Shown here one piece after another: positions 6,585 to 29,305 of a stretch of DNA of 64,000 nucleotides; positions within the stretch are counted from its first letter, which is position 1; the number at the start of each line of letters is the position of its first letter. A program made the translations under genes and the position numbers. The DNA is taken from the NCBI GenBank assembly GCA_024636935.1, contig JAGXGC010000004.1, positions 17,287 through 81,286 on the forward strand, written 5' to 3'. The notes under the pieces are model-generated. The model was not told the origin of the DNA. It saw only the letters and a list, made by a program, of their open reading frames with translations, and ran no database searches. Source of the DNA: Sideroxydans sp. Lineage in GTDB: Bacteria; Pseudomonadota; Gammaproteobacteria; Burkholderiales; Gallionellaceae.

Positions 6585-7514
6585 TCAATCAACCTTAGCC
6601 TTACCCAAAACATGTTTGACTTTGGCAATCAGGGTGGCTTTATCGATTGGTTTCACCACGAAATCCGCAGCGCCAACTTTCATACTGTTACTAACGATCT
6701 GCCCGTCGCTTTTCCCGGTGATCATGATCACCGGAATCTTGGATAACTTTGGCTCGGCTTTCAAATTTCGCATGGTTTCTAGGCCGTCCATTTCCGGCAT
6801 CATGACATCCATAAGAATGAGGTCTGGCTGCGCCTTACTCATCATATTCAAGGCTTCACTACCGCTGGTGGCGAAAGTTAGATGATAGTTTTTACCCTCC
6901 AGCAGTTTGAGAATAAGTTTGTGCTGAAAGTCATCGTCATCCACAACCAAGATGTTCGGTCCGCTCAGCTTGGCCTGTTCTGCGATGTTCGATGTGTCGT
7001 TGTGCTTCGTCTTATCTACACGCAGTGTATCCAGCATCTTCTCCATTTCTGCCAAAGGACGCGAGTGCACGGTCAATTCGGCGACCCTGTCACCGACCGA
7101 GTTGAGGGAAGCCAATTCGCGCAGCGCATTGTGGACAGACATGTTCAAGCGGGGAGCGTCATAGGTCATAGGCCAGAACAGAATGTAATCGTCAAAGATA
7201 TCCTTCATGCATAACTCGTACGCACGCCTGACTTCGTCTTTGCTGCTCAGAATGATGGTGCGGTGCGGCTGCTGATGTATTTCCGGACATAAGCGGTACA
7301 TGCTCAGATAGTAGCGTTCAGATTTTTCCAGCGTATTGAATGCCAACACCAGCACATCGGGTCGATGCCGAACAAAATCAGCAACTGCATGATCTGCATC
7401 GGAGGAAATAAATACCTCATTGAATGCTTCGTGCAGGATCCCGCGCACCAGGCCAGCGTCGTCGATGATGTCCGTGGCAATTAATATCTTTGAAGATATA
7501 GCGGAAGTCGTCAT
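6585..7514 (-). CDS. Double receiver-domain response regulator (N-terminal pseudo-receiver)
   Basis: The C-terminal REC is intact (ILVVDDDD, DLILMDVMMPEMDG, FVVKP). The N-terminal REC-like domain has DVLVLAFN, with no phosphoacceptor Asp. Confidence 0.88.
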   Translation of the reverse strand: MTTSAISSKILIATDIIDDAGLVRGILHEAFNEVFISSDADHAVADFVRHRPDVLVLAFNTLEKSERYYLSMYRLCPEIHQQPHRTIILSSKDEVRRAYELCMKDIFDDYILFWPMTYDAPRLNMSVHNALRELASLNSVGDRVAELTVHSRPLAEMEKMLDTLRVDKTKHNDTSNIAEQAKLSGPNILVVDDDDFQHKLILKLLEGKNYHLTFATSGSEALNMMSKAQPDLILMDVMMPEMDGLETMRNLKAEPKLSKIPVIMITGKSDGQIVSNSMKVGAADFVVKPIDKATLIAKVKHVLGKAKVD

Positions 7515-8811: not shown

Positions 8812-11800
8812 TCACGCCGCAGACCTTACACGGCGCTCATACTCATCAAGAAAATGCTCCACCTGTGCCAGCGCCTGCTCGAATCTGGGCAACAGCGCTG
8901 CTACCGCTGCACTATTTCCGAGCTTGCCGGCATTCTCTATCTCGGCACACGATTCACCCAGCGCCAGCGCCCCCACCGAGCGCGACGATGATTTGAGTTT
9001 GTGTGCCAACGCCCCGGCAGCCTCCGCCTGACCCGCCGCACAAGCGGCACGCAACTCGACGGCTATTTTTTTTGCACTGAGATGAAAGTCATGCAAGAAG
9101 TCGCGCAGGGTCGCGTCGTCGTCGCCGACTAATTGCTTTAGCACATTCACATCCACCGGCAAGGGGGATGAAGCTTGCAGTCTGTTGTCCATGGGGACAT
9201 CTCCTTCATTCTTATGCGCGCCACGAGGTAGCCACTTCTCCAGCATCGCTTTTAGGTCGACCAGTTGCACCGGCTTGCTCAGGTAATCATCCATGCCGAC
9301 TTCGCGGCAACGCTCGGCTTCTCCGCGCAGGACATTGGCGGTCAGGGCGATGATCGGGATATGCCGCGAGTCCCCCTCTGCGGCACGAATCGTGATGGTC
9401 AGTTCATAGCCGTCCATCTCCGGCATATGCAGGTCGGTGAGCAGTAGGCCGTAATCTCCGCTCCGCCACTGTTCCAGTGCCGCGCGCCCGTCATCGGCAA
9501 CTTCTGCGGCAAACCCGAGCAGCGCGAGCTGGCGCAGAATCACTTTCTGGTTGGTCTCGTTGTCTTCGGCGACCAGAATCAATCGCCCCTGTCGCCGCGC
9601 TTCCTCGCGCGACGGCTGTTTCACGGTCGCGACACTCCTGCCAGAGAAGGGCAGTTCCGCTTCTTCCTGCGCCCTCCCGGCGGCGATGGCCACCGCCTTG
9701 AGCAGAACCCTGCCGGTGAGCACATTACCATCCACCAGTACCAGATTGGCATTCTCCAAACGCGGCTCGCGACGCTGCCCACGCCCGATGACGACGAAGC
9801 GGGTTTCCTGTTCCGGGTGGGCGCGGACTGCGGCGCGCAGGTCATCCAACGGCGGCTCGCCACCTGCGGTATCGATAATCACGATGTATAGACCGGACGG
9901 GAAATCGGTCATCCATTCCTGTGCAGCCGCCAAATCCGCCAACCGTTTGACCACTGCTCCACCATGCACCAGATAGGCGGCGAGATCATCGGCCAGATAC
10001 TCGTGGCCACCCACTACGAGACAGGACAGGCCCTCAACCAGAGAGGATGTTTCGCTGATCCCGGTTTTTTTCGGCGCCAGCGCGAAGGGAAGGCGCACGC
10101 TGAACACCGTCCCCTTGCCCAATTCGCTTTGCACCGTTATCTCGCCGCCCATCAACTCAACCAGGTGGTGGACGATGGACAGCCCGAGCCCGGTGCCGCC
10201 AAAACGCCGGGTGGTGGATATGTCGGCCTGAGTGAAGGGGGTGAAAAGCCCCGACAATGTCTCTTTGTTCATCCCGATGCCGTTGTCGGTCACGCGAAAC
10301 TCCAGTGTTGCCTGTTCCGCTGTGCTCTCGACCAGCAGGGCGCGCACGGACACCCTGCCTGACGGCAGCTTGCCGGAAAACTTGATGGCGTTATTGGTCA
10401 GGTTGATCAGCACCTGGCGCAGGCGCAGCGTATCGCCCAGGACTTTCGCCGGAATTGCCGGATCGACGAATAGCGTGAGCTCTACCCCCTTCTTTTCGGC
10501 CATACTGTCCAGCATGCCACAAACGTTTTCCACCACATCGTCCACCGGCGTGGGCGCATATTCGATCTCCAGCTTGTCGGCTTCGATCTTGGAAAAGTCG
10601 AGAATGTCGTTGATGATGCCCAGCAGGGAATACGCCGATTCGCGGATCAGGTTGACCATTTCCACCTGGTAGCCATGTAGGCTGCTCTGGTGCAGCACGT
10701 CGATCATGCCGATCACGCCGTTCATCGGGGTGCGAATTTCATGGCTCATCGTGGCGAGAAAATCGGACTTGGCGCGGTTGGCGTGCTTGGCCTCAAGCAT
10801 GGCGGTTTCCAGATCGGCGGTGCGCGTTTTTACTTTTTCTTCCAGCTCCTCATTGAGTTTACGCAGCGCCTCCTCGGCCTGCTTAAGCTCGGTGATGTCG
10901 CGGCTTATCCCGAAGATGCCCACAACGGTCTTCTTGTCATCGCCGAACACCGGCCACTTGTTGGTGTTCACCCAGCGCTGCCTGCCCTGCTCGTCATAGT
11001 AGGGGTCAGTCTTGTTCAGCAGAGATTTGCCTTCCTTAAAGACCGGCAATTCTTCTTCGTAGTAAATGCGCGCCGTATCCTTGGGGAAAACCTCCTGGTC
11101 GTGCTTGCCTACCATGTCGCGCCAACTGGCATGGCCGGTGATATTCGCCAGCGTCTGGCTGCAAAAAATAAAACGGCTATTTTTGTCCTTGAAATAAATG
11201 AAATCGGATGTGTTTTCCAGTAAAACAACAAAATTCCGGTTCAATTCGAGAATTTTTTCCTCGGCCTGCTTGCGCCCGGTGATGTCGCGCATGATCCCCA
11301 CGGCATGCCAGCGGCCTTTCTCTTTGAGCGCCGAGATATATATTTCGACGGGGAACTCGCTGCCGTCTTTGCGTATGGCCGTAACTTCCCGTATCTTCCC
11401 GACCAGCGGACCTTCGCCAGTTTTTTGAAAATGGGCAAAGCCGCGCGCGGCATCGGCGTGATCGCGGGGCGGGGCAAGCAACTGGTGCATCTGCCGCCCG
11501 AGCGCCTCCTCCCGGCTGTACTGGAACATCCTTTGCGCTGCAGGGTTCCAGTCGGTAAGCCTGCCATGTTCGTCGATGATGGCAATGGCATCCTGGGCGG
11601 AGGCGTTGATCTGCCGGAAGCGTTCCTCACTCTGTAATTTCTGAAAGACCAGGGAATAGAGCGCAGGAGAAATGATCAGGGTAAGCAGGGTGGCATCAAG
11701 AAAGTTCCAGTAAACATCCGGGATGTTCATGGTGCTGAGAGCATCACCGATTACTACCATGATAAGAAGTTCGGCCACCAGAATGAGTAAGCCCAGGGCG

Positions 11801-11868
11801 ATTGTCAGCCCCAGTGGGGTATTGAACAGCCTCGTCAACTCCAGGTTTTTCATATCGGGTTCATCCAA
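8812..11868 (-). CDS. Hybrid histidine kinase HK1 (2TM-PAS-PAS-HisKA-HATPase-pseudoREC-REC-Hpt)
   Basis: [11 protein letters not shown]-box, N/G boxes, DLHMPEMDG receiver and [13 protein letters not shown] Hpt. The real start may be MKNLE at 11853. Confidence 0.95.
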   Translation of the reverse strand: MDEPDMKNLELTRLFNTPLGLTIALGLLILVAELLIMVVIGDALSTMNIPDVYWNFLDATLLTLIISPALYSLVFQKLQSEERFRQINASAQDAIAIIDEHGRLTDWNPAAQRMFQYSREEALGRQMHQLLAPPRDHADAARGFAHFQKTGEGPLVGKIREVTAIRKDGSEFPVEIYISALKEKGRWHAVGIMRDITGRKQAEEKILELNRNFVVLLENTSDFIYFKDKNSRFIFCSQTLANITGHASWRDMVGKHDQEVFPKDTARIYYEEELPVFKEGKSLLNKTDPYYDEQGRQRWVNTNKWPVFGDDKKTVVGIFGISRDITELKQAEEALRKLNEELEEKVKTRTADLETAMLEAKHANRAKSDFLATMSHEIRTPMNGVIGMIDVLHQSSLHGYQVEMVNLIRESAYSLLGIINDILDFSKIEADKLEIEYAPTPVDDVVENVCGMLDSMAEKKGVELTLFVDPAIPAKVLGDTLRLRQVLINLTNNAIKFSGKLPSGRVSVRALLVESTAEQATLEFRVTDNGIGMNKETLSGLFTPFTQADISTTRRFGGTGLGLSIVHHLVELMGGEITVQSELGKGTVFSVRLPFALAPKKTGISETSSLVEGLSCLVVGGHEYLADDLAAYLVHGGAVVKRLADLAAAQEWMTDFPSGLYIVIIDTAGGEPPLDDLRAAVRAHPEQETRFVVIGRGQRREPRLENANLVLVDGNVLTGRVLLKAVAIAAGRAQEEAELPFSGRSVATVKQPSREEARRQGRLILVAEDNETNQKVILRQLALLGFAAEVADDGRAALEQWRSGDYGLLLTDLHMPEMDGYELTITIRAAEGDSRHIPIIALTANVLRGEAERCREVGMDDYLSKPVQLVDLKAMLEKWLPRGAHKNEGDVPMDNRLQASSPLPVDVNVLKQLVGDDDATLRDFLHDFHLSAKKIAVELRAACAAGQAEAAGALAHKLKSSSRSVGALALGESCAEIENAGKLGNSAAVAALLPRFEQALAQVEHFLDEYERRVRSAA

Positions 11869-14800
11869 TTAATACCCATCGAGAAAATGTTCAACATTCG
11901 TCAGCTCCTGTTCAAACCGGGGCAGCAGCACTGCCAGCGTTCCGTCCTCGCCCGCCTTGCCTGCCTGTTCCATTGCGGCGCACAGCTCGCCCAGCGCCAG
12001 CGCGCCCACCGAGCGGGCCGAGGATTTTAGCTTGTGCGCCGCCGCGCCGACGGTCGCCATATTACCTTGAGCGTAGGCCGCACGCAGTTCCGTTACGATC
12101 TTGTCGGCGCTGCTGTGGAAGTCGTGCAGGAACTCGCGGATGATCGTCTCATCGTCGCCCACCAGTGCCTTGAGTACGTTTACGTCAACCGGGACAGGTG
12201 ACACAACGGGCAGTTGTAGGTCGGGATTTATCCCGACATGCCTGTCCTGAGCCTGTCGAAGCGGTCGGGTTGAAACCCGACCTACGCTTAATGTCGATTC
12301 GCTCGGCATTGGATCGGAAGCAACAACCGGCAACCATTTATCCAGCATCGCTTTTAGGCTGACCAGTTGCACTGGCTTGCTCAGGTAATCATCCATGCCG
12401 ACTTCTCGGCAATGTGCGGCTTCGCCTTTGAGTGCATTGGCGGTGAAGGCGATGATGGGCATACGTGTCTTGCCGGTTTCGGCGGAACGGATGGAGGTGG
12501 TCAGCTCGTAGCCGTCCATCTCCGGCATGTGCAGGTCGGTGATCAGGATGCCGTAATCGCCGCTCTGCCAAAGCGCCAGCGCTTCGCGACCATTACCGGC
12601 GATATCTGCGGTTTGCCCGAGCAGCTTGAGTTGTTGCAGGACGACTTTTTGGTTGATCTCGTTGTCTTCGGCGACCAGGATCAGGCTGCCTTGTCGGCGC
12701 GCTTCTTCGCGGGACAACGGCGCGAGTGTTGCTTTGACATGGTTGGACAGGTCTTTCAGCTCAGGCGGTTTGACCCAGCCGGCAGCAACGGCCACCGCCC
12801 TCAGCAGCGCATTGCGGGTCAATACATTGCCATCCACCAACACCAGATCGGCATCTTCCAAACGCAGTTCCCGTCGCTGCCCGCGCCGGATGACGATGAA
12901 GCGAATTTTATGTTCCGGGTGTGCGCGGGCTGTGGCACGCAGTTCATCCAGCGGCGGGTTGGCGGCTGCGGTGTCAATGAGCACGATGCACAGGCCGGGA
13001 GGATGCTGCAATATCCATTCCTTGATAGTACCCAAGTCTGTCACCCGCTCGACCAGCGCACCCGAATGTTTAAGATAGACGGCAAGATCATCGGCAAGCC
13101 CGTCTGCGCCCACTACCAGGCAGGGCAGGCCGGTGACCTGTTGATTGGGCTGAATTCCTGAGCCTGTCGAAGCGGCCTGAACTGCATTCACTAACAATTT
13201 GAAAGGCAGGTGCACAGTGAATGTCGAGCCTTTGCCCGGTTCGCTCTGCACGGTGATTTCACCGCCCATGATATTTGCCAACTTGCGCGAGATGGCCAGC
13301 CCCAACCCGGAGCCGCCGAAATGCCGGGTGGTGGAAGAGTCCGCTTGGGAAAAAGGTGTGAACAATCGCGCCTGAGTTTCTTCATCCATGCCAATGCCGT
13401 TGTCGGCCACACGAAACTCCAGCATCACCTGCTCCGGCGTGCTTTCAGCCAGCCGCGTACGCACCGATACCTTACCTTGCCCCTGCTGTCCGCCGGAAAA
13501 TTTGATGGCGTTGCTGGTCAGGTTGACCAGTATCTGGCGCAGCCGTCCCGGATCACCCATGACTGTTGCGGGAATGGCCGGGTCGGTGAACAGCAGCAGC
13601 TCCACTCCTTTCTTTTCGGCCATCTGATCCAAGGTTCCACATGCCCCCTCCACCACGTCGGCGACAGACGTGGGTACGCTGTCAATCTGGAGCTTGTCAG
13701 CCTCGATCTTGGAGAAGTCGAGAATGTCGTCAACGATAGCCAGCAAGGCAAACGCCGAGTCGTGGATGATGTTGGACATCTCCATCTGTGCGCCATTCAG
13801 GTCGCTCTGCTGCAATACATCCACCATGCCGATCACGCCGTTCATCGGGGTGCGTATCTCGTGGCTCATGGTGGCAAGGAATTCAGACTTGGCACGGTTG
13901 GCATGCTCTGCTTCGATCCGGGCGCGCTCCAGATCGGCGGTGCGCGCCAGCACTTTGTTTTCCAGCTCTGCGTTGAGATGGCGCAGCGACTCCCCCGTAC
14001 GTTTCTGATCTTCGATCATACTCAACAGCGCATCGGCCATCTGGTTGAGCGCATGGTCGATACGACCAAGATCATCGGTCGCAGAATCGCCGCCCGTCAC
14101 GAGGCGCGTCTTCAGGTCGCCGGCCGCGATGCGCGCGGAGAATTCCACGGTGCGACTGACCGAGCGCGTTATGCCGCGCCACACCGCCCATGAGATCAGC
14201 AGCATGAGCACGATAGCGGCGGCGCTGCCGATGACGAAGGTGATCGTCGCCCGCATCATGGTTTTGTTTATGTGATCGAATTCTTCGTCAGAAACGACCT
14301 TGGCGGCGTGGTGCAGCGTATCCAGCAGCGATTCGATCTCATCGGCGGTGACGGATAACTGCGCCTGGCTGGTGTCGATCTTGTGTTTGACCTCGGCATA
14401 CTCGTCGAACAGCGCGATGTAATCGGTGATCAGTACGGTCATGGCTGCGCGCTGTTTGGCCGATAGTCCCGGCGTCTGGCGCAGATGTTGCCCGAAATCC
14501 TGTTCGACTTGGCGCACTTTCTTGATGTCCTGCGTCTGGTTGCGCAGCAGAAAATCTTTTTCCGCGCGACGCAGGCTAAGCAGGTCTATCATCAGCGGCA
14601 TGGCGGCGGGCGGAATGAGCCGCTCGATGGCGTGGGCGCGCTGGCGAAAACGGCCTTCAAGCCCCGTATCCACGTGACCGAGGCGGCCATACAGCTCAAC
14701 CAGTTCGATAAATATAGCCTCGTGCCGACGGATCTGCCGCCCGATTTCATCTGTGCCCGCCATGGCCTGCCGCTCGTGCTCCATCGTGGGCAGGCGGTGA

Positions 14801-15168
14801 AGTTCAGCTACAAGCGCGATGATGTTGGCAACTTCGTTGCGCACCAGACCGAGGTAGCGCGAGCGCGCCGCCGGGTAACTCAGCTCTTGCCAGGACAGTA
14901 TGAAATCCTTCTCATAACCGCGCGCCTCATCCATGCCCTCATCTATATTCAGGATGGCTGCATCCATTGGTATATGCACGTCCTGAATATTCCGCAGTTG
15001 GGAAGCAAGCTCCGATGAGAGGATATTGGCCATCGCCGCGAGCAGGACAAGAAGCGCGATACCGGTGCCCAGCCCGAGCATGAGCTGGGCGCGCAGCCCC
15101 AGTCGGCGCACCATACCGCGTGGCGACGGTTCAATTCTGGCAGTGGATGGAATCATGGACAAGATCAA
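11869..15168 (-). CDS. Hybrid histidine kinase HK2 (TM-helical periplasmic sensor-TM-HAMP-HisKA-HATPase-pseudoREC-REC-Hpt)
   Basis: Two TM helices, [14 protein letters not shown] sensor motif, [14 protein letters not shown], receiver and Hpt ([13 protein letters not shown]). Confidence 0.95.
12216..12285. repeat. Inverted GTAG-type REP doublet (REPIN-like) with a nested second repeat, inside the HK2 coding sequence
   Basis: GTAG-GTCGGG-atttat-CCCGAC at 12216-12237; its inverted partner GTCGGG-ttgaaa-CCCGAC-CTAC at 12264-12285; spacer cctgtcctgagcctgtcgaagc. Confidence 0.85.
13156..13175. repeat. Second copy of the 20 bp tcctgagcctgtcgaagcgg element within HK2
   Basis: Identical to 12245-12264. 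Confidence 0.8.
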
Positions 15169-18100
15169 TACCCCTCAAGAAAATGTGCAACGCTCGCCAG
15201 CTCCTGTTCGAACTTTGGCAACAGCGCCGCCAGCGCTTTATTATTGCCCGCCTTGCCCGCCTGTTCCATTCCCGCGCACAACTCACCCAGCGCCATCGCC
15301 CCCACCGAGCGCGACGATGATTTGAGCTTGTGCGCCAACGCACCGGCAGTGGCTGCCTGACCCGACGCGCAGGCGGTGCGCAGTTCCGCCGCTATCTTGG
15401 CCGCGCTGAGGCGGAAGTCGTGCAGGAACTCGCGGATCGCTGCCTCGTCATCACCGATCAACGCCTTGAGCACATTCACATCCACAGGCAAGGGGGATGA
15501 AGCTTGCAGTCTGTTAACCATGGGGACATCTCCTTCATTCTCATGCGAGCCACGAGGTAGCCATTTATCCAGCATCGCTTTTAGGCTGACCAGTTGCACC
15601 GGCTTACTCAGGTAATCATCCATGCCGACTTCTCGGCAATGTGCGGCTTCACCTTTGAGTGCATTGGCAGTGAAGGCGATGATGGGAATACGTGTCTTGC
15701 CGGTTTCGGCGGAACGGATGGAGGTGGTCAGCTCGTAGCCGTCCATCTCCGGCATGTGCAGGTCGGTGATCAGGATGCCGTAATCGCCGCTCTGCCACAG
15801 CTCCAGCGCATCGCGACCATTACCGACGATATCTGCGGTTTGCCCGAGCAGCTTGAGTTGTTGCAGGACGACTTTTTGGTTGATCTCGTTGTCTTCGGCG
15901 ACCAGGATCAGGCTGCCTTGTTGGCGCGCTTCTTCGCGGGACAACGGCGTCAATACCGTTTTGACTTCACCAGTTACTGCTTGCCAGTCAGACACCTTAA
16001 CCCTGCCGGAAGCGACCGCCACCGCCTTCAGCAAAACCTTGCGAGAAAGCAAGTTGCCATCTACCAGCACCAGATCATCTTCCTCTACACGCGGCTTGCG
16101 GCGCTGCCCGCGCCGGATGACGACAAAGTGTGTTTGCTGTGCAGGGTGGGCGCGCGCTGCGGCGCGCAGCTGATCCAGCGGCAAGTTGGCGGCGGCGGTG
16201 TCGACCACCACGATGCACATGCCGGGTGGACGCTTGGCTATCCATTCCTTGACTGCCGCTAATTCCGCCTGCCGCTCGACCTTTGCACCCGCATGCACAA
16301 GATAGGCGCCGATATCATCGGCAAGACCCTCGCTACCTCCTGCCACCAGACAGTTCAGTCCGGCAACCAGACTGGGAGTGGCTTCCGGCTGCTCCGGCAC
16401 CCGTTGGAAAGCCAGGCGCACAATGAACACCGAGCCTTTGCCCGGTTCACTCTGTACTGAAATATCGCCGCCCTTGATATTTACCAGCTGCCGCGAGATA
16501 GCCAAGCCCAGTCCGGTACCGCCATAGGTGCGGGTTGTGGATGAGTTGGCCTGGGAAAAGGGCGTGAACAACCGCGCCTGCGTTGCAGCGTCCATACCGA
16601 TGCCGTTATCGGTCACGCGAAACTCCAGCTTCACCTGTTCTGCTGTGCTTTCTGTCGGCAAGGTGCGAACCGACACCTTGCCCTGCCTCGTTTGCCCGCT
16701 GGAAAACTTGACCGCGTTATTGGTCAGGTTGACCAGTATCTGGCGCAAGCGCCCGGGATCGCCCATGACTTGCGCAGGAATGCCGGGGTCAGTGAACAGC
16801 GTCAGCTCCACATCTTTGTGCAAGGCGATGTGGCTCATGGTTTCGCATGCCGACTCCACCACATCGGCAATAGACATGGGCACGCTTTCGATCTGCAGCT
16901 TGCCCGCCTCGATCTTGGAGAAGTCGAGAATGTCGTCGATGATGGACAACAAGGCGAACGCCGAATCGTGGATGATGTTGGCCATCTCCGTCTGCGCACC
17001 ATTCAAACTGCTCTGCTGCAACACATCCACCATGCCGATCACACCGTTCATCGGCGTGCGTATCTCATGGCTCATGGCGGCAAGGAATTCAGACTTGGCG
17101 CGGTTGGCCTTCTCGGCTTTGAGCATGGCCTGCTCCATGGCAAGCGTGATGCGCTTTCGTTCGCGGATGTCGCGCAGAATGCCGGTGAAATAACGCGCCC
17201 CCTGTACAAGATATTCGCTGATAGAGAGCTCCATCGGGATGAGTTCGCCGCTTTTGCTTTTTCCTACGATCTCCCGCCCGATGCCGATGATGCGCGTCTC
17301 ACCGGTACGCATATGGCGATCCAGGTAGCTGTCATGGGCGGAATGGTCGGGTTCTAGCATGAGCATGGAAACGTTTTCCCCGATCACCTCATCGTGGCTA
17401 TAGCCGAGTATCTTCTCCACCGCCGGGTTGGCAGAAAGGATGATGCCTTGGTCGTTTATGGTGATCACGCAATCCATCATGTGATCGACCACAGAGCGGA
17501 TCTCTTCTTCCTTTTTACTTATGTCCAGATTGGTTTGTTCCAGCGCAGCAGTGCGCGACGATACTTTTTGTTCGAGCTCTTCATTGAGCTGGCGCAGCGA
17601 CTCCTCAGCCTGCTTGCGGTCTTCGATCACGCTCAATAATGCGCGCCGCGATTGATTGGCGGCGGCTAGCAGCTCTTGCGCCAATTTTTCAGATGCCAGG
17701 ACTTCCTCGTTGCGAATCTGTTCCGTCAAGTCGGTTGCCACCAGACAGAAAACTGCGGATATCTCATGGATGAACAGATCGTTCACGGACAGCGAAACTG
17801 GGACCCGCGCTCCGTTTCCTGTGACAAGCTCAAGCTGAACGCGGCGCTTCCCGCCTGATCCATTGTCCAGCAACGGTTGAAGGATTTTCCGGCTGTCCGG
17901 TGCAATAAAGGTAGAGAACGTGGCGCCGATCACTTTTTCGAGTGGCGTCTTGAGTATCTCTGCAAAGCTCTGGTTGGCGTACAAAATGACGCCCTCCGCA
18001 GATAGGGTCAGCGCACCTTCGCTCATGTTTTCGATCAGCAACCGGTAAGACTGGTCGGTGCCTTTGAGCGTAAAAATCTGCGCGCCAGCCGCCCCAGTGA

Positions 18101-18221
18101 CGAACAATGCGTCCGACTCACCGCTGAATATCTCGCTCAGGGTCGCTTCGGCTTTTTCAAGCCGGGCGCGCAAATCCCGGTTGTCTGCGAGCAACTTCTC
18201 TGAGGTGGGATAGTTTGGCAT
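15165..18221 (-). CDS. Kai-associated hybrid histidine kinase HK3 (coiled coil-PAS-FixL-like PAS-HisKA-HATPase-pseudoREC-REC-Hpt)
   Basis: N-terminal [21 protein letters not shown] motif, of the type seen in kinases following kaiCB; second PAS is FixL-like ([22 protein letters not shown]); H-box, REC and Hpt present. Confidence 0.94.
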
Positions 18222-18562
18222 TACGCCTTCTTCCGTATTTCCAGCCCCATCAGCACCTTCTCGGTATCCGACAGATCGCCGATGATGCGGCGCAACGGGG
18301 GGGGGAGTTTTCTGATCAGTGTGGGAATGGCGATGATCTGCTCACCCTGAGCGAGTTGCGGCTGCTGGTACAGATCGATCACGTCCAGCTCATATCGACC
18401 CCGCAGGTTTTCTTCACAGATCTTTTTGATGTTGACGATCGCGTTGACGGATTTAGGCGACTGTCCGGCGATGTACAGTTTCAGGATGTAGCGGCTTGAA
18501 ACCACCTTGGGCGATGCGCTCATGGCTTTGGGAGGCTCGGGCGGAGATGAATTCTTCTTCAT
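18221..18562 (-). CDS. kaiB: KaiB-like protein
   Basis: [14 protein letters not shown]...[24 protein letters not shown]. Confidence 0.96.
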
Positions 18563-20331
18563 TTCGAGCCGCCTTTTTGTTTGTTCGGTTTTGCGTCCAC
18601 TTTGCGGATCAACCCCATGTCCACAAGTCCCTGCGCCAGTTGCGCTTTCTCTGCCTTTTCCTGGTCGATGATTGTTAACGAGGCGACCTCCTGCACCGCA
18701 AACTCGGCACGCAACATGGCGACCTGCGCTTCCAGCGTGGTGCGTTTGCGTTCCAGTTCGATGCGCCGCAGCTCGACTTCCTGATCGTGCACTAACAACG
18801 TGGCTTCTTTTTCCGCCTCTTTCGTCAGGCGCGCTGAGCCGGTCAGCACGCCCTCCGGTCCGACGTATACGTCGCGCAGTTCCACGCCTCGATCGGTCAA
18901 CAAGAACTCGCGTATCTGGTTCGAATGCGCCATACCGCGCGATTTCAGGATGGACAGGCAGCGATTACGTTCGCCGCCGCTGTCGATGTCCTTCAACAAC
19001 AGCCAAGTGTCGATCACGGACGAAATGGCGACATCGGTTTGTTCGAGCGGATTTCCGCTCTGCGCCAGATTGGTGAACAGGCCCGTGATCTGTCTTGTTT
19101 TCAGGAAATCCACCAGCCGCATCAACATCGATTTGACTTCGATCTGATTGTCACCGATGACAAAACTGTTCAACGGATCCATGATCACCACCTGCGGTTT
19201 GAAGTCATCGATCAATTTGTGTTTCAAGGCCAGGTGCGTTTCCAGGCCCGCGGACGAGGGACGGTCCGCATAAATCTGCAGCAGACCTTTCTTGACACAC
19301 GGTTGCAGGTCGATGCCGATGGAACGCATGTTGCGCATGATCTGATCGGGGGATTCTTCAAAGGAAAAGTACAGTACGCGTTCGCCGCGACGGCAGGCGG
19401 CATCGGCAAAGTGTGCGGCGAGACTGCTCTTACCGGTGCCCGCCGTACCGGAGACCAACACGCTACTGCCCCGGTAATAACCTTTACCGCCCAACATCGC
19501 ATCGAGACGCGCAACGCCGCTGGAAATACGCTCACTGGAGGCTTTATGATCCAGACTCAGCGACGTGACCGGCAGCACCGAAATGCCGTCTTCGTCGATC
19601 AGGAACGGATACTCGTTGGTGCCATGGGTAGAGCCGCGATACTTGACCACACGCAAGCGGCGCGAAGAGGTCTGCTCGCTCACGCGATGGTCGAGCACGA
19701 TCACGCAGTCGGAGACGTATTCTTCCAGGCCCTGGCGTGTCAGCGTTCCTTCGCCGCGTTCGCCGGTGATGACGGCCGTCACGCCTTTATCTTTCAGCCA
19801 GCGAAACAGGCGACGCAGTTCGGCACGCAGGATGGCCGGATCGGGCAGACCGGCAAACAATGTTTCGATGGTATCCAGCACCACACGTTTGGCGCCGATG
19901 GCATCAATGGCTGCCCCAAGACGGATGAACAAGCCTTCCAGATCGTATTCACCGCTCTCTTCGATTTCGCTGCGCTCGACATAGACATGATCCAGCACGA
20001 TCTTTTTTCGCGCGGCCAAGCCTTTCAGATCGAAACCGAGTGAGACGACGTTCTGGGTCAGGTCTTGGGCTGTCTCTTCGAAAGACATAAACACGCCCGG
20101 TTCGTTGTACTGCGTCGCGCCACGCACCAGGAACTCCATCGCGAGCAGCGTCTTGCCGCAGCCTGCGCCGCCGCAGATAAGCGTCGGTCGGCCTTTGGGC
20201 AATCCTCCACCGGTGATCTCGTCCAGCCCCTGAATGCCGGTTGGCGCTTTGGGGAGTTGCGGCCTGGATCTTGAGATTGATCTGACCTTGGCTGCCGGTT
20301 TGGATATTGCTGCAGGCTTGAGCTTGGTCAT
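18559..20331 (-). CDS. kaiC: KaiC (double-domain, KaiC2-like, C-terminal coiled-coil tail)
   Basis: Two P-loops ([16 protein letters not shown]), two SFEE motifs, phospho-site region [22 protein letters not shown] and an ~80 aa helical tail. Confidence 0.97.
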
Positions 20332-23300
20332 AAGTTGGTTTCCGATGGATTTTCAGATTCGGCGCTGGGGTAACGAGGATCTTTTCCAGTCTGTCCCAGC
20401 AGTTCGTTCACTTCATGCTTGAGGTCAAGGATGCGACCCTCACGCCCCGAGGTCACGTCATGCCAGCGGCGCAACTCATCCAACTGTTCGGCAAGTTTGG
20501 CTTCATTCAGCTTGCGCTCGGTGATGTCTCGCAATATTCCCAGCCCACCAGTGACCCCGTTGTCGCCCAACGGCGAAATGCTGCTATCGGCATCAAAATA
20601 TTCGCCTGACTTTTTGGCTATGCGCAGTCTGAAAGATGTAGTGGCTTCGCCGCCCAGTACTTTCAAGAAGATGTCGTTGGCGAACGGCAAGTCGTCCGGA
20701 TGGACAATTTGCCCGAACGGCTTGCCAATCCATTCTTCTGTTGCCCAACCTGTAATCCGTTCAAAGGCGTTGTTGAGGGAACGAAAAGTTCCGTCCGGCT
20801 CTAGCAGATAGATGATGTCGTAGGCATGCTCGAAGATGCCGCGGTAGCGCACATCGCTTTCACGTAGCGTATTTTCCGCACGCTTGCGTTCGGTGATGTC
20901 AATAAAAGTGACGATCGCGCCTATGGTAACCCCGTCGGATTCGATGGGATGCGACCAGTATTCAATAGGGATAGCGACGCCGTCCTTGCGCCAGAAAACC
21001 TCATCGGAAACATTGATGGGTTGATTTACTCGGTAAGCGCGATATGCCTTGCATTCATCTTCAGGATAGGAACTGCCATCGGCTCGGGAATGATGGATGA
21101 GATTATGAAGGTGCTTGCCCATCACTTCAGCTTCGTTCTGGTAACCCAGCATTTTCAGGAAAGCACGATTGACGAAAGTACAGTCACCATTGCTATCCAC
21201 CCCATAAGCACCTTCAGCCATCGAATTAAGCATTCGATGCAAACTCTCATTGGAGTCCCGCACCGCTTTCTGTGCCTGCTTAAGTTGCGTGATGTCTTCC
21301 TTGATCGCCAGATAGTGAGTCACTCGACCATCGGCCTGGCGCACTGGCGACACCAACGCTGACTCGATGTATTCACTGCCGTCCTTGCGCCGGTTGATGA
21401 ATTCGCCTTTCCATATTTCACCACGCGTCAGATGCGCCCACATTTCCTCATAGTTTTTCTTGGGTGTTTTGCCGGACTGAAGCAGGCGAGGGTTCTGTCC
21501 GATAAGTTCGGCGACGCTATAACCGCTCGTCCTGGCAAATGCCTCATTGACATATTCAATGTTTGCGTCAAGGTCGGTGATATCGATCGCGCTTGGACTT
21601 TGCTCTACTGCCAGCGAGAGCTTGCGCAACGACTCCTCAGTACGCTTTCGTTCAGTAGTGTCGATCGCTGTGGCATAGGTGATGCCATCGTGCTTGTCAT
21701 AGTAAGCCGTCCACGACAGATCAATCACACTGCCGTCTTTGCACTGGTAGCGGTTATCGAAATACAACGTCGGCCGGCTTTCTACCTGCTGCGTCATTTC
21801 ATCCGCGGTCTTTTGCCTGTCATCTGCCAAAACGAAGTCAAGGAACGGCTTTGCAATAAGTTCACTTTCGGAATATCCGGTTAGTTTTGAAAATGCTGGA
21901 TTGACCTGCGTGAAGCAGCCGTACGGATCGGCAATACACATCGGGTTGATTGAAAGCACAAAGAATTTTAAATACTGCTCCTTATCCTGCTCCAGCTTCT
22001 TGCGGGCGGTTATGTCACGCGCAATGCCCAACACGCCAGCCAGTTTTCCACCGGCATCACGCATCGGTGTCTTGACGGTTTCCAGCAGAGCGCGATGTCC
22101 GTCGTCGGCAAAGACAACCCATTCTTCATTGATGCAGGAATCTTTCGCCGCCATGGCGATACGGTCATGCTCGCGAAAAGATGTCGCCAATTCCCTGTCC
22201 ACAAAATCAAAATCTGATTTGCCGACAATATCCGCTTCTCTTGCGCCAAAGAAGCGCTCAAACATCGGGTTGCAGCTCTGATAGATGCCCTCGACATCCT
22301 TCAACCAGATCAGATCGGGTATGGCATTCACCAAGGTACGCAAACGGGTTTCTTTCTCCTCCAGCAAGAGCGCCAATTTATTGCGTTCGGTAATATCTTC
22401 TCCGATGCTCGCCGTTCCGATCACCTCACCCTCTATCGAACGCAGCACCGAATTATTCCAGCGTATCAGCCGACGCTCGCCCGAACGGGTGAGTATCTCG
22501 TTCTCGTGATGCAGCCCCCCGGACTGGTTGTCGATCAGCGAGGTGAAAAATTCATTTCGTAAACCTTGAATTTCGGGCGGCACGAAAAGATCCCACCAGT
22601 TTTTACCGATGACTTCCTCGCGCTTCCATCCAGTCAGGCGCAACAGGTAATCATTGCAATAGGTGATCCGCGCCTCGCGGTCCAGCATCATTGAAATCAG
22701 TTCTACATTCCCCAACAGGTCGCTGAAGCGCCGTTCGCTCTCGCGCAGTTCTCCATTGGCGCGGGCGATTTCCAGTTCAGCCATCTTCAGGTCATGGATA
22801 TCCGTGCAGGTGCCAAACCACTTGAGGATGTTGCCGTCGGCATCCAGCAGTGGCACGCCGCGCATCAGCCACCAGCGGTACTCCCCATCGGCGCGGCGCA
22901 AGCGGCTTTCGATGGAGTAGGTGGCCAGATCCCTGGTTGCGTTCTGCCAAGCGTCCCATGCCTGCTGCTGGTCGTCCGGATGAAACGGCTTGTTCCACCC
23001 ATGCCCCAGACTTTCCTCCAGCGTGAGTCCGGTGTAGTCCATCCAATGTTGGTTTATATAAGTGCCCCAGCCGTCCGCGCGTGTGATCCAGACGATCTGC
23101 GGCATGGATTCGGCCAGCGTGCGGAATTCAATTTCGCTAGCTCGAAAACCTTCCTCGATCCGCTTCCGTTCAGTGATGACTTGGGTGAAGAAAACGATCC
23201 CGCCGATTTCACCTCCCGCCTTGCGCCAGGGGCGCGCCTCCCATTGCAACCACTCGGTCGAACCGTCTGCTCGAGGAAAAGGGTCTTCGTCGCAATGCTC

Positions 23301-24494
23301 GGTTGCGCCGGCCTGAACGCGCTGGTGAATATCTTTCCAGCGTTGCGGGGCATCCGGGAAGATCTCGTAATGTGACTTGCCGATGATATTCTGGCCGGAG
23401 AGGTGGTAATCCTGTATCCACCGTTCACTGGTCTGGATATAGCGCATCTGCGTATCCAGCATGGCGATGGCCGCCGGGGTGTGCTGGATGAATTCTTTGA
23501 GCAATGCTTCGCTCGCCGCGAGATCGTTCTCGGCCTGCTTGCGAGCAGTGATGTCCTGCAAGGTCGCCAGGCGATAAGGCGTGCCATCCAATGAAACGTA
23601 TTCCGCCGAGAGCAGAGCATGGACTAGATTTCCGTCTCGAGTGCGCAAAGTCACTTCGACATTACGCAAAGAATCCCCCGCACTTAGGCCGAGCACGAGC
23701 AACTTTTGGAACTCATCCTCGCTAATGGCACCTAGATCCACCCAGCTCTTTCCCATGATCTCCTGCCGGGTATAACCAAGAAAATCGGCATACGATCGAT
23801 TGACATCTACGATCGTGCCTTCAGTCGTGCCAATGGCGATCATGGCGGGGTTGGATTCGAATATCGTTGAGAATTTCTCTTCACTCTTACGCAACGTTTC
23901 TTTCGCTCTTTGGCGTTCGGATATGTCGCGCATCACGCCCACTGCTTGCCAACTCCCTTTTACTTCGAATGCGGTAACAGATAACTCGACAGGGAATTCA
24001 CTGCCGTCCTTGCGAATGGCAGTTACCTCGTTGAGGATTCCAATCAACGGCCCCTTCCCTGTCTTTTGAAAATTGGCAAAACCGCGTTGCGCATCGGTGT
24101 GGTAGTGCGAAGGTGCAAGCAACAGGTGCGCCTGCTTCCCGATCGCTTCTTCCCGGGTGTACTGGAATTTCCTTTGCGCTGCCGGATTCCAGTCAGTGAT
24201 GCGGTCCTGCTCGTCAACGATAACAATTGCTTCCTGAGCCGAGGTGTTGATCTGCCGCAACAGTTCGTCACTCTTGAGTCTTTTGAAGACCAATGAGTAG
24301 AGCACTGGAGAAATGATCAGGGTTAGCAGGACGGCATCGATCAGGTTCTGGTAAAAAATTGAAATATGTGTATCGATGAAGGGGCCATGGATTACAGACA
24401 TAATCAAAAATTCGACCAGCATGATGAGCAAAACCAAGACAAGCACGACCCCCCAAGGGGTCTTGAACATCGTCGGTAACTTCCAATTATTCAT
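20328..24494 (-). CDS. Membrane-anchored protein with 10 PAS/PAC domains and no catalytic output domain
   Basis: Two N-terminal TM helices, ten PAS/PAC repeats counted by eye (most ending in a DITERK-like motif), and a short helical tail LDELRRWHDVTSGREGRILDLKHEVNELL. Confidence 0.9.
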   Translation of the reverse strand: MNNWKLPTMFKTPWGVVLVLVLLIMLVEFLIMSVIHGPFIDTHISIFYQNLIDAVLLTLIISPVLYSLVFKRLKSDELLRQINTSAQEAIVIVDEQDRITDWNPAAQRKFQYTREEAIGKQAHLLLAPSHYHTDAQRGFANFQKTGKGPLIGILNEVTAIRKDGSEFPVELSVTAFEVKGSWQAVGVMRDISERQRAKETLRKSEEKFSTIFESNPAMIAIGTTEGTIVDVNRSYADFLGYTRQEIMGKSWVDLGAISEDEFQKLLVLGLSAGDSLRNVEVTLRTRDGNLVHALLSAEYVSLDGTPYRLATLQDITARKQAENDLAASEALLKEFIQHTPAAIAMLDTQMRYIQTSERWIQDYHLSGQNIIGKSHYEIFPDAPQRWKDIHQRVQAGATEHCDEDPFPRADGSTEWLQWEARPWRKAGGEIGGIVFFTQVITERKRIEEGFRASEIEFRTLAESMPQIVWITRADGWGTYINQHWMDYTGLTLEESLGHGWNKPFHPDDQQQAWDAWQNATRDLATYSIESRLRRADGEYRWWLMRGVPLLDADGNILKWFGTCTDIHDLKMAELEIARANGELRESERRFSDLLGNVELISMMLDREARITYCNDYLLRLTGWKREEVIGKNWWDLFVPPEIQGLRNEFFTSLIDNQSGGLHHENEILTRSGERRLIRWNNSVLRSIEGEVIGTASIGEDITERNKLALLLEEKETRLRTLVNAIPDLIWLKDVEGIYQSCNPMFERFFGAREADIVGKSDFDFVDRELATSFREHDRIAMAAKDSCINEEWVVFADDGHRALLETVKTPMRDAGGKLAGVLGIARDITARKKLEQDKEQYLKFFVLSINPMCIADPYGCFTQVNPAFSKLTGYSESELIAKPFLDFVLADDRQKTADEMTQQVESRPTLYFDNRYQCKDGSVIDLSWTAYYDKHDGITYATAIDTTERKRTEESLRKLSLAVEQSPSAIDITDLDANIEYVNEAFARTSGYSVAELIGQNPRLLQSGKTPKKNYEEMWAHLTRGEIWKGEFINRRKDGSEYIESALVSPVRQADGRVTHYLAIKEDITQLKQAQKAVRDSNESLHRMLNSMAEGAYGVDSNGDCTFVNRAFLKMLGYQNEAEVMGKHLHNLIHHSRADGSSYPEDECKAYRAYRVNQPINVSDEVFWRKDGVAIPIEYWSHPIESDGVTIGAIVTFIDITERKRAENTLRESDVRYRGIFEHAYDIIYLLEPDGTFRSLNNAFERITGWATEEWIGKPFGQIVHPDDLPFANDIFLKVLGGEATTSFRLRIAKKSGEYFDADSSISPLGDNGVTGGLGILRDITERKLNEAKLAEQLDELRRWHDVTSGREGRILDLKHEVNELLGQTGKDPRYPSAESENPSETNL

Positions 24495-25288: not shown

Positions 25289-27172
25289 TCACCCTTTCGC
25301 TTCATAAAACCGGATTAGATTACGTCCGGCTTCCTTGGCCTGATACATCGCGATATCCGCCCACTTGAGAATATCTTCGGTGCTGGCTTGGCGGCCAAGG
25401 AACACCACCACGCCAATACTCGATGTGCAACGATGTTTGATTGCGGATTCATTGTCTCCGTCGCTCCGAATCGTTAGTTCATAAGGTTCGGCCAAAGCAA
25501 GACGGATTTTTTCCGCCACGATACCGGCTTCTGCAGCAGACCTGTCTTTATCCGCATCCAGCTCGCGCAACAGCACCACGAACTCATCACCACCAAAACG
25601 CGACACCGTATCCGTTTCCCGCACACAAGCACCGATACGGCTCGCCACTTCGACCAGCAACAAGTCGCCTGCGCCATGCCCGTGCGTATCATTCAGCGCC
25701 TTGAAGTTATCCAAATCCAGAAACAGCAGCGCGCCATAATGGCCGCTGCGTTTACCGGCAGCCATCGCCTGCGTCAGCCTATCGGCCAATAAACGCCGGT
25801 TGGGCAGTTGCGTCAAAGCATCGTAGAAGGCCAGCGTGTGAATTCGCTCTTCCGCCACTTTGCGCTCGGTAATATCGTAAAACCAACCCAAAACGCCCGC
25901 TTCATTCCGATAGTCCAAATTGAAGTAGGACGACAGCACCCATTTCTTCCTGCCGCCCGGGATATTCAGCTCAATCAGTTTATTGCTGACACTTTTACCG
26001 CGAGACAAGGCTTGGAGTATTTCTTCGTATTCCTGCGGCTTCGCGTAGTAAATCTTCGGGTCGATTCCGGCAACTTGATCGGCTGGCGCCTCGATCAGCT
26101 CGGCATAACGCTGATTGGAAAACAGCACCTTGCGCCCGCCCGTGTTGGCAATCCGCACGGCAATAGGGCTGGTCTCCAGCATCAGGCGAAACCGCGCCTC
26201 ATCGTTTAGCAGAATCTTTTTGGCGCGCCGCAGAGGCAACCAGAAGCCGAGCGAAACCAGACTGAAAATCACGATCGCGATAGCGTACTTCCAAATACGT
26301 CTGTGCCATGCAGCCAGATAGTCCTCCTCCGAAATGCCCGCGAAAACAATCAGTGGAAACTCGCCGACCTGCCTGAAGCCCAACTGTCGCTTGATACCAT
26401 CCACGGGTGATTTGCTCAAATAGACGCCCTGTGTGTCGCCGTTCTCGATATATTTTTTGACGGCCAACGGTACGACTTTGCCCATCAATTGCTCATTGGG
26501 CGGATAGCGTGCCACAAGGTGAAGTTCTTTGTCGTACATGGCGACTAAGCCATGAGCTCCCAGATCAAGCTTTCGGTACAAAGTTTGAAAATGATCCAGA
26601 TCCAGAATGACCACCACGACACCAGCAAAACCGCCCGTATCAAAATTCAGCCGGCGCGTCATCACAATGGTCCATTTGTTGAAGGTGCGCGAAATAAGCG
26701 GGGGAGAAATCACCAGCCCCGCATTCGGGTTGCTTTGGTGGACTGTGAAGTGCGAACGATCGGCGATATTGATAGGGGGAGTCAGATCAAGCGAACTGTA
26801 TATGTGATTTCCCGCAGCATCTGAAATATGGATCGCTTCCACTTCCGGCTCGCCCTCAGTTTGCGCTCTAAGCAAAGCATGAATTTGCTGCCGGCGCACA
26901 CCACTCACACCATGCAAAGCGCGCATGTCATTCGGCCGCAGATTCCTTTGCACTTCGTGCAACAGCAGATCGCCTTTATCCACGATAGCCAGCGCATGCA
27001 CTTCCAGCAACCGGGTGAGATTTTCGACCTCCACTTTGGCATGTCGGGTCTCATCCCGATATTCATTGGTCAGACTCACCAATAACAAAACGATGAAGCC
27101 CGCCAAACCGGCAACACCGGTAAATACAGTCAAGCTAAAAAATCGACGGTAAGTAGTGGGAGCATCCTTCAT
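25289..27172 (-). CDS. Sensor diguanylate cyclase (TM-Cache-like-TM-PAS-GGDEF)
   Basis: TM helices flank a dCache-like region, followed by PAS, FLDLDNFKALNDTHGHGAGD and RFGGDEF. Confidence 0.93.
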   Translation of the reverse strand: MKDAPTTYRRFFSLTVFTGVAGLAGFIVLLLVSLTNEYRDETRHAKVEVENLTRLLEVHALAIVDKGDLLLHEVQRNLRPNDMRALHGVSGVRRQQIHALLRAQTEGEPEVEAIHISDAAGNHIYSSLDLTPPINIADRSHFTVHQSNPNAGLVISPPLISRTFNKWTIVMTRRLNFDTGGFAGVVVVILDLDHFQTLYRKLDLGAHGLVAMYDKELHLVARYPPNEQLMGKVVPLAVKKYIENGDTQGVYLSKSPVDGIKRQLGFRQVGEFPLIVFAGISEEDYLAAWHRRIWKYAIAIVIFSLVSLGFWLPLRRAKKILLNDEARFRLMLETSPIAVRIANTGGRKVLFSNQRYAELIEAPADQVAGIDPKIYYAKPQEYEEILQALSRGKSVSNKLIELNIPGGRKKWVLSSYFNLDYRNEAGVLGWFYDITERKVAEERIHTLAFYDALTQLPNRRLLADRLTQAMAAGKRSGHYGALLFLDLDNFKALNDTHGHGAGDLLLVEVASRIGACVRETDTVSRFGGDEFVVLLRELDADKDRSAAEAGIVAEKIRLALAEPYELTIRSDGDNESAIKHRCTSSIGVVVFLGRQASTEDILKWADIAMYQAKEAGRNLIRFYEAKG

Positions 27173-29262: not shown

Positions 29263-29305
29263 TGTTTTTCCTTTGCAACATTTGGGCACTCTCAATTGCA
29301 TTGCG

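Follow-up and report, generated by a model that had tools for sequence, protein, structure and literature searches.

KaiA-less KaiBC timers are common outside the cyanobacteria, and their inputs and outputs are poorly defined. A 2011 catalogue (PMC3164672) includes Kai loci that adjoin kinases or GGDEF/EAL proteins, and the gene order kaiC-kaiB-PAS/kinase has already been described in Rhodopseudomonas palustris and Rhodobacter sphaeroides (PMC4794148). In the kaiC2 subgroup, of which a Ser-Ser pair is the mark, a C-terminal coiled-coil extension joins two KaiC hexamers and exposes the A-loop, leading to autophosphorylation without KaiA, while KaiB drives ATP hydrolysis and dephosphorylation of such a KaiC to give an hourglass set by the ATP/ADP ratio (PMC10076222). 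Here we describe a Kai locus in a 64,000-nucleotide stretch of DNA (the window) from the Sideroxydans sp. assembly GCA_024636935.1 (contig JAGXGC010000004.1, positions 17,287 to 81,286 of the forward strand), in which kaiC and kaiB lie between the gene of an output-less protein with ten PAS domains (P0001, hereafter the 10-PAS protein) and three hybrid histidine kinases, HK3, HK2, and HK1. An original prediction for this DNA held that the 10-PAS protein acts on KaiC through its C-terminal helix, here called the tail, in place of KaiA, and that HK3 is a SasA-like output. Our analysis indicates that the locus is probably an accessory operon that moves horizontally and is centred on a KaiA-independent KaiC2-KaiB2 timer, with the HK3 relay as its output and the 10-PAS protein as an accessory co-sensor. 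The Kai module itself is of a known kind, and the operon as a whole is a variant in which a conserved, undescribed accessory sensor is coupled to Kai. Coordinates written as start..end are window positions on the minus strand.

The kaiC gene (18559..20331) encodes a protein of 590 amino acids (aa) with two tandem RecA-like KaiC domains (PF06745, two stretches, 360 bits), and the Walker A motifs GGAGCGKT and GTAGTGKS are present in its translation. It scores 745 bits against the NCBIfam model NF006799, for which the cut-off is 408, and its closest relative in the PDB is the R. sphaeroides KaiC 8dba (666 bits). Alignment to S413/S414 of R. sphaeroides KaiC identifies a phosphosite pair at Ser437-Ser438 (19018..19023), where AISSVIDTW is matched to GLSSLMDGW; the pair reads EE in the phosphomimic chain of 8fwi/8fwj, in line with the KaiCRS-S413E protein of PMC10076222. 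The C-terminal extension, residues ~505-590 (18562..18819), is of the coiled-coil type and aligns with the coiled coil of 8dba up to residue 564, as expected from the long coiled coil that had been proposed to end this KaiC, and the total of 590 aa compares with 519 aa in the Synechococcus elongatus chains. The adjoining kaiB (18221..18562, 113 aa) matches Pfam PF07689 with 96.7 bits (cut-off 27) and scores 108.2 bits against NCBIfam NF006798, slightly below the equivalog cut-off of 110, and its closest PDB match is R. sphaeroides KaiB (8fwj_M, E = 2.7e-30). Neither the window nor the rest of the 2.7-Mb genome (95% complete) gave a match to KaiA (PF07688), and the genome contains one true KaiC gene, so the description of the module as KaiA-less holds for the genome as well. 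With its two domains, its Ser-Ser pair, an extension of at least 50 aa, an adjoining kaiB, and no kaiA, this KaiC is a member of the KaiC2 / R. sphaeroides subgroup. By analogy with that subgroup, it is predicted to autophosphorylate independently of KaiA and to be dephosphorylated under stimulation by KaiB, which we regard as probable as part of the best explanation of the locus. The missing KaiA needs no further explanation, since the extension of this KaiC class by itself gives KaiA-free autophosphorylation (PMC10076222). Many KaiC2-type loci contain two tandem kaiB genes (loci L044, L066, L074, and L109-L112), and the window contains one.

HK3 (15165..18221, 1018 aa) is encoded directly 3′ of kaiB and contains two PAS matches, HisKA, HATPase_c, REC, and Hpt by Pfam. 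Its residues 1-175 (17697..18221) form an adaptor that is modelled by AlphaFold2 as a helix at 7-33, a beta-hairpin at 36-53, and a PAS domain at 58-165; the coiled coil proposed for the start of HK3 is thereby retained as a predicted helix of 27 residues. In BLAST searches, matches to this region were found directly 3′ of kaiB in all kaiC2-kaiB loci examined (20 further loci, 30-65% identity), whereas tail loci without Kai genes gave weak PAS-level matches, none of them in the kinase adjoining the tail gene. A sample of 401 genomes from the phylum was the basis for co-occurrence of the adaptor with KaiC and for the counts of KaiC2-type loci given below. The full adaptor was present in all 12 genomes of this sample with a KaiC at least 49% identical and in none of the 389 others (Fisher P = 3e-23); in 11 of these genomes one contig carries it beside kaiC, and in the remaining genome (G062) the two are on separate short contigs. 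The adaptor signature, L.AEN.ELRARL.EAE.TLRAIRSGE.DALV..G...IFTLKGAD..YR.LIE.M.EGA, is strongly conserved (alignment A3, 21 loci), and matches to solved structures are limited to the PAS part. These comparisons provide strong evidence, drawn from sequence, that the adaptor is the Kai-coupled part of HK3. In a Leptospirales metagenome-assembled genome (MAG; L033:5048-10778), the gene of a REC-PAS tail protein precedes a 132-aa KaiC-like fragment, possibly a decayed kaiC, after which comes a kinase whose full adaptor is 55% identical to HK3 1-175.

A precedent for such a contact is found in Pseudomonas putida, where KaiC binds the N-terminal PAS domain of a neighbouring kinase (bioRxiv 10.1101/2022.01.26.477890). 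This precedent and the co-occurrence of the adaptor with one type of KaiC indicate that HK3 probably works like SasA. SasA docks via a KaiB-like N-terminal sensor domain (PMC3164672), and no such domain was found at the N-terminus of HK3, either by Pfam or in the AlphaFold2 model with its helix, hairpin, and PAS domain, which places HK3 outside the SasA family. The earlier designation of HK3 as a SasA-like output is therefore kept in its functional sense, as the likely readout of the timer, and dropped as a statement of family membership; HK3 would be a functional analogue of SasA. The adaptor-bearing proteins have different outputs, which include hybrid kinases, kinase-REC proteins, a PAS-GAF-HD-GYP protein (L106), and a PAS-GAF-GGDEF-EAL protein (L107). 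In the window, the kinases are followed by a gene for a REC-EAL response regulator of the cyclic di-GMP (c-di-GMP) phosphodiesterase type (7529..8746), and by Pfam a REC-EAL gene also lies 3′ of the kinase in the sister Kai loci L002 and L004. Because REC-EAL follows the kinases and the adaptor is fused elsewhere to c-di-GMP enzymes, a c-di-GMP output appears well supported, in agreement with the proposal of a circuit that ends in c-di-GMP turnover. In such a circuit, the adaptor would read the state of KaiC/KaiB and gate HK3, and HK3 would pass phosphate via its own REC and Hpt domains to REC-EAL, lowering c-di-GMP, while HK2 and HK1 may feed the same relay from other sensors.

The 10-PAS protein (20328..24494, 1388 aa) was identified as an open reading frame (ORF) with its translation, and both Pfam and TIGR00229 gave ten PAS stretches. 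Its N-terminal membrane module (residues ~14-70, 24285..24455) consists of two hydrophobic segments seen in the translation at residues ~14-36 and 49-70, and its N-terminus is of an MKNWKLS type that also occurs in kinases downstream of other tail proteins. The PAS array covers residues ~76-1322 (20529..24269; ten stretches each for Pfam PAS, PAS_9, and PAS_4). HisKA, HATPase, GGDEF, EAL, and DNA-binding domains were not found in the protein by Pfam, and the hydrophobic segments and Pfam thus agree with its earlier description as a protein with two transmembrane helices, ten PAS domains, and no kinase, GGDEF, or EAL domain. The tail helix that follows, residues 1325-1368 (20391..20522; ...EQLDELRRWHDVTSGREGRILDLKHEVNELLGQ), was delimited by AlphaFold2 and conservation. 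In a monomer model of the last PAS domain and tail (185 residues, 64-sequence alignment), the tail is a single unbroken helix of 44 residues (122-165 of 185, pLDDT 94) after a PAS fold, and the PRYPS cap (residues 1373-1377, 20364..20378), which is followed by a short acidic end, is non-helical with a pLDDT of 60-80. The end of the protein had been described as a short helix, which the continuous 44-residue helix and its non-helical cap do not bear out. An alignment of 40 tails gave the consensus EQLDELRRWHxATLGREGRILDLKxEVNELLxxxGQPPRYPSAE with E, L, R, E, K, N, L, and Y invariant; in the cap, the Tyr is invariant and the Arg and Ser are nearly so. Judged from the sequence, the residues L, W, T, R, I, L, V, and L would occupy a/d positions of a coiled-coil register with a polar central heptad (T, R). 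Searches of Pfam (E up to 10), NCBIfam, and PDB sequences returned no match for the tail, the lone weak match in database searches being the J-alpha peptide of the P. putida short LOV protein 2yon (E = 0.1). In Foldseek, the nearest structures to the last PAS domain and tail were the short LOV proteins 7r5n, 7a6p, and 9vf7 (TMt 0.75-0.82), together with YF1.

The last 64 residues of the 10-PAS protein were used as a tail query that was searched in three ways. All 45 matches of a word-indexed search were PAS-only proteins, with N-terminal sensors that include CHASE3, dCache, CHASE, GAF, REC, 5TMR-LYT, and solute-binding domains, and no kinase, GGDEF, or EAL domain was found in these 45. A profile built from 40 tails and run against 1.84 billion cluster representatives (50% identity clusters) matched 9,835 representatives at E up to 1e-3 and 3,387 at E up to 1e-10, and in 148 of the best 150 the match was the extreme C-terminus. 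The terminal position of the tail is thus a selected state and not an accident, and the possibility that the gene is a truncated kinase, with orthologues that carry an output domain, is not borne out among these relatives. Among 185,579 species genomes (one genome per species), 431 tail relatives were found in at least eight phyla, which include Pseudomonadota, Chloroflexota, Acidobacteriota (including Holophaga foetida DSM 6591), Verrucomicrobiota, Planctomycetota, Spirochaetota, Actinomycetota, and Hydrogenedentes. The 10-PAS protein is therefore a member of a large, unnamed family of output-less PAS proteins, in which the tail helix is a general module. Two metagenome proteins of 1763 and 1514 aa (P0022 and P0024), both among the 45, are annotated as P-type Cu+ transporters; they have a P-type ATPase region at the N-terminus, contain GAF and PAS domains, and have the tail at their end, and represent either unusual fusions or gene calls that were merged. 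In 63 of the 401 genomes of the phylum sample (G022, G118, G086, and others; L092-L103), a weaker sister motif is present, ELERFxxxAVGRELRMIELKxEVNxL...RY. It is mostly C-terminal, and in some very large proteins it is internal and followed by an acidic linker and a segment like LLDNYCN or ILDSFCKALGI.

The genes that follow tail genes were counted for the 63 that had enough downstream sequence. The next gene was kaiC in 13 of the 63 (~0.004 expected, P ~1e-42), which corroborates the proposed enrichment of the tail motif beside kaiC, and a histidine kinase in 34 (~1.3 expected, P ~1e-41), often overlapping or abutting. Four loci from close relatives all contain the tail protein, kaiC, kaiB, a hybrid kinase, and usually REC-EAL, and in four loci from distant relatives no kaiC adjoins the tail gene; a PAS/GAF signalling protein or a kinase is next in L009, L010, and L011, and in L012 the tail gene is followed by a 114-aa ORF and then a PAS protein. 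A KaiC homologue (E up to 1e-40) is missing from 32 of the 35 genomes in which a tail protein is linked to a kinase. Conversely, the phylum sample contains 12 KaiC2-type loci, and a tail protein is encoded at just one of them, that of the window; upstream of the five closest KaiC orthologues (78-88% identity) lie unrelated genes and no tail protein. With KaiC-less tail genomes on one side and tail-less KaiC2 loci on the other, the function of the tail cannot depend on KaiC, nor can that of KaiC2 depend on the tail. Within the genus, KaiC occurs in just 2 of 37 genomes, with an adjoining tail protein in both, indicating that the cassette is a rare accessory block.

These results bear on the proposal that the 10-PAS protein docks on KaiC with its terminal helix and controls KaiC autophosphorylation, which would make the protein a dedicated multi-signal input to the timer. 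The proposal is attractive in that the tail gene overlaps the start of kaiC (ATGA), the 13 loci with the tail directly upstream of kaiC come from Pseudomonadota, Chloroflexota, Hydrogenedentes, Spirochaetota, and a Myxococcota-labelled MAG, the tail protein is present in both genomes of the genus that have KaiC, one genome has two tandem tail proteins before kaiC, and the Kai-linked tails retain PRYPSA and favour K-H-EVN. It is nonetheless quite improbable and, as a reading of the tail acting in place of KaiA, not supported: KaiC is missing from most genomes with kinase-linked tails, the tail is missing at 11 of the 12 KaiC2-type loci and at those of the close orthologues, the KaiC class is KaiA-free via its own coiled coil (PMC10076222), and the tail, a single helix, shows no similarity to KaiA and no match to the KaiA C-terminal domain PF07688 (Pfam, E up to 10). 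Repeated independent recruitment to kaiC is likewise not shown by a tree of the last PAS domain and tail, which has nine changes to or from kaiC linkage; it is poorly resolved, its well-supported branches force just one change, and a single origin is possible. The genome with the tandem proteins is a Nitrosomonadales MAG (JAHFQZ010000001.1; L006/L008/L014), in which CHASE3-PAS and Tll0287-like-PAS tail proteins with an 8-bp overlap directly precede kaiC, kaiB, and a kinase. Two other possible links between tail and KaiC were set aside. Programmed read-through from the tail gene into kaiC was considered since several loci have one frame with a single stop between the two, and was rejected as a general feature, the genes of the window overlapping out of frame; a basic N-terminal extension of KaiC co-varying with the acidic end of the tail was rejected because tail-less KaiCs have similar Lys-rich extensions.

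HK1, HK2, and HK3 each combine HisKA, HATPase_c, REC, and Hpt in one chain (Pfam), with an SHEIRTP H-box, a receiver Asp context, and an Hpt HKLKSS motif seen in the translations of HK3 and HK2, and are hybrid (unorthodox) histidine kinases of the BarA/TorS/ArcB type. HK2 (11869..15168) begins with a transmembrane segment and HAMP domain, and HK1 (8812..11868, likely ATG start at 11853) with two transmembrane segments and two PAS domains. The three are paralogues with kinase-REC-Hpt halves that are 57-69% identical and sensor ends that differ: HK2 and HK3 are 69% identical over the 697 aa of the kinase half, HK1 is 57-62% identical to HK3 and HK2, and the REC-Hpt linker is longer in HK2 than in HK3. 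The N-terminus of HK1 is also 51% identical over 250 aa to that of the 10-PAS protein (BLASTP), a common module of two transmembrane segments and the first PAS domain (2TM-PAS1).

We propose that the 10-PAS protein may serve as an accessory co-sensor that forms dimers via its tail and acts in trans to modulate the kinases encoded in the operon. Its most plausible partners would be HK1, with which it has 2TM-PAS1 in common, and/or HK3. A heteromeric contact with HK1 and a convergence on one relay are plausible because of the 51% identity of the 2TM-PAS1 modules and the 57-69% identity of the kinase-REC-Hpt halves, and the signal from the 10-PAS protein would then meet that of the Kai timer, without the protein replacing KaiA. 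This appears to be the most economical reading, and likelier than a surrogate for KaiA, in view of three recurrent features: an output-less protein that ends in a coiled-coil helix rich in conserved polar residues, a gene that abuts or overlaps a signalling gene, and occasional natural fusions to that partner (L032 and L046). Several points weigh against it. The signalling mode of the tail is taken from gene order and a monomer model, and the operon structure from gene overlaps and not from transcripts. A direct contact of the tail with KaiC, or of the PAS domains with KaiB, in the Kai-linked subset would likewise account for the enrichment beside kaiC and the ATGA coupling. At the non-Kai loci, the kinases downstream of tail proteins have no common N-terminal docking motif, and their N-termini are of several unrelated membrane or soluble types. 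Finally, the many polar residues conserved along the helix (R, W, G, R, E, R, K, E, N), together with the invariant Tyr, point to a specific partner. An RRALLSxxED linker was considered as a mark of such partners and rejected, since it occurs in 13 of 56 downstream kinases and 1 of 33 others and is thus enriched and not required; it also occurs in HK3 and HK2 and, past the tail, in two fused proteins (L032 and L046).

Among the other explanations, one would have the PAS domains of the 10-PAS protein, and not its tail, bind KaiB or KaiC in the Kai-linked subset and tune the timer, as in the multi-PAS protein KidA of Synechococcus, which acts on fold-switched KaiB (PMC9478674). This would be consistent with the adjacency and coupling of genes of this type to kaiC. 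We consider it unlikely, given that the PAS arrays of Kai-linked tail proteins vary in PAS number and in N-terminal sensor (CHASE3, Tll0287-like, or two transmembrane segments), that their last PAS domains are merely 25-45% identical, and that it leaves the conservation of the tail without an explanation. A similarly low probability is assigned to a history in which tail proteins are the N-terminal halves of multi-domain kinases divided at a signalling helix between domains, the tail being a former linker that re-associates non-covalently with the next kinase, with kaiC-kaiB inserted between the two at this locus. Such a division is suggested by fused forms in which the tail continues into an HK3-like kinase (L032) or a PAS-HD-GYP protein (L046), by the sister motif (ELERF..GRELRMIELK.EVN) that is sometimes internal with a C-terminal region beyond it, and by the kinases next in 34 of 63 loci with frames that often overlap or abut. 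It is difficult to reconcile with the terminal position of nearly all tails, with a conservation of the tail far above that of usual linkers, and with the many downstream kinases that begin with membrane sensors unable to continue a cytoplasmic coiled coil. The first of the fused forms, in a Burkholderiales MAG (L032:7346-12463), is a 1705-aa frame in which a complete tail motif leads into an HK3-like kinase from about HK3 residue 160, as though a deletion had removed kaiC, kaiB, and the adaptor; the frame may reflect a natural fusion or an artefact of assembly.

Rather less probable is a split-sensor class in which the tail would be a trans-acting helix that inserts into the coiled coil of the next-encoded protein, which would be the dimerisation helices of a kinase in most genomes and the C-terminal coil of KaiC2 in the Kai-linked subset. 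If this were true, the 10-PAS protein would gate KaiC autophosphorylation according to the environment and so be a functional, non-homologous counterpart of KaiA. The terminal coiled coil might also be linked to Che-like pathways or be a methylation target of the CheR/CheB type, with adaptation enzymes setting the gain of the sensor. A methylated S-helix has reportedly been found in RsbK of Bacillus cereus, and CheB is encoded immediately 5′ of the tail gene in L026, L033, L035, L043, L059, and L075, CheW-CheR genes lie upstream in L004, L015, and L018, and CheA-CheB genes lie near L008. However, che genes are nearby in just ~10 of 79 loci, and the tail presumably has no obvious methylation consensus of the chemoreceptor (MCP) type, which we count against this explanation and which makes it very improbable as the general role of the tail. 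Several tail proteins in the che-linked loci begin with a REC domain. For the 10-PAS protein, the reading that we prefer is still that of an accessory co-sensor for the kinases encoded with it.

By ORFs and Pfam, the co-oriented minus-strand run comprises eight genes, from that of the 10-PAS protein through kaiC, kaiB, HK3, HK2, HK1, and REC-EAL to a 309-aa protein (6585..7514) with a C-terminal REC domain and an N-terminal region of ~180 aa without a Pfam match. The earlier description listed joined genes as far as HK2, and the run continues past them with HK1, REC-EAL, and the REC protein. The four junctions of the first five genes, for which stop/start overlaps of 1-4 bp had been proposed, were read directly. 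Three are overlaps: 4 bp between the 10-PAS protein gene and kaiC (cttATGAcc), 4 bp between kaiC and kaiB (aaATGAag), and 1 bp between kaiB and HK3 (gcgTAATGcc). The fourth, between HK3 and HK2 (taTTGAtc), is a 4-bp overlap only with a TTG start, the alternative being an ATG 8 nt past the stop. A gene for a dCache-PAS-GGDEF diguanylate cyclase (25289..27172) has the same orientation; 794 bp lie between it and the operon, and it is probably a separate transcription unit. Further upstream, window positions 27830-29301 encode two cytochromes c, one of them a dihaem protein of the SoxA/TsdA type. The locus has its nearest relatives in Sideroxyarcus and Gallionella, and together with the cytochrome c genes this suggests that the host is a lithotrophic iron- or sulfur-oxidising bacterium. 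No photosynthetic reaction-centre gene was found in the host genome, which is consistent with the view that the host is probably non-photosynthetic.

The co-occurrence of the adaptor with KaiC and its interchangeable outputs mark it as the likely general readout device of coiled-coil KaiC timers, and its fusions point to c-di-GMP as a common output in non-phototrophs. The analysis also corrects a tempting over-reading of the tail as a KaiA substitute and draws attention to an output-less PAS family of ~10,000 clusters, without a label in Pfam, NCBIfam, or the PDB, that is hard-wired upstream of kinases or Kai cassettes. The binding partner of the tail would explain how such "orphan" sensors signal, and the same question arises for short LOV proteins. 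Searches of the literature on KaiC in Gallionellaceae, on S-helix and PAS proteins without an output domain, and on Kai brought up no description of a tail-bearing PAS-only protein upstream of kaiC.

Among structures, the last PAS domain and tail most resemble the short LOV proteins (PpSB1-LOV, PpSB2-LOV, and PF5-LOV; 7r5n, 7a6p) and YF1 (4gcz), which likewise consist of a PAS core with a long C-terminal J-alpha helix; the short LOV proteins also lack an effector domain and are the best full-length matches (TM 0.61-0.69 on the query). They differ in being a single LOV domain of ~150 aa, with a helix that has no sequence similarity to the tail and no PRYPS cap. We know of no conserved linkage of short LOV proteins to a downstream kinase. 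The tail also resembles the S-helix (Anantharaman, Balaji and Aravind 2006, PMC1592074), a parallel coiled-coil helix of ~40 residues that follows a sensor domain and has polar core residues, including an Arg in the central heptad. However, the S-helix has an ERT signature where the tail has T-x-G-R-E-x-R, and it lies nearly always between two signalling domains, whereas the tail ends its protein with a PRYPS cap. KidA of S. elongatus (PMC9478674) is comparable as a multi-PAS protein that touches the Kai oscillator and ties it to c-di-GMP enzymes, and the 10-PAS protein differs from it in having no catalytic domain and in that its conserved part is a C-terminal helix.

Like SasA, HK3 is a histidine kinase encoded with or acting on Kai proteins and is presumed to read the state of KaiC, but it has the helix, beta-hairpin, and PAS adaptor instead of a KaiB-like N-terminal domain. 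In the group III KaiC system of P. putida (Terrettaz et al., bioRxiv 10.1101/2022.01.26.477890), the contact of KaiC with the N-terminal PAS domain of the neighbouring kinase would correspond to the adaptor as contact point; the neighbours named in the pertinent passages of that preprint are a hybrid kinase and a response regulator, and KaiB is unmentioned in them. The timer core most resembles the KaiBC hourglass of R. sphaeroides KD131 (8DBA, 8FWI, 8FWJ; PMC10076222), which has a two-domain, Ser-Ser, coiled-coil KaiC, the closest KaiB, and no KaiA, and the gene order kaiC-kaiB-PAS kinase is that of the R. palustris operon (PMC4794148). Unlike those two systems, the Sideroxydans locus has as its kinase a hybrid with REC and Hpt domains, followed by two paralogous hybrid kinases and REC-EAL, it lies in a host without a reaction-centre gene, and it includes a tail-bearing, output-less 10-PAS protein that is translationally coupled upstream of kaiC.

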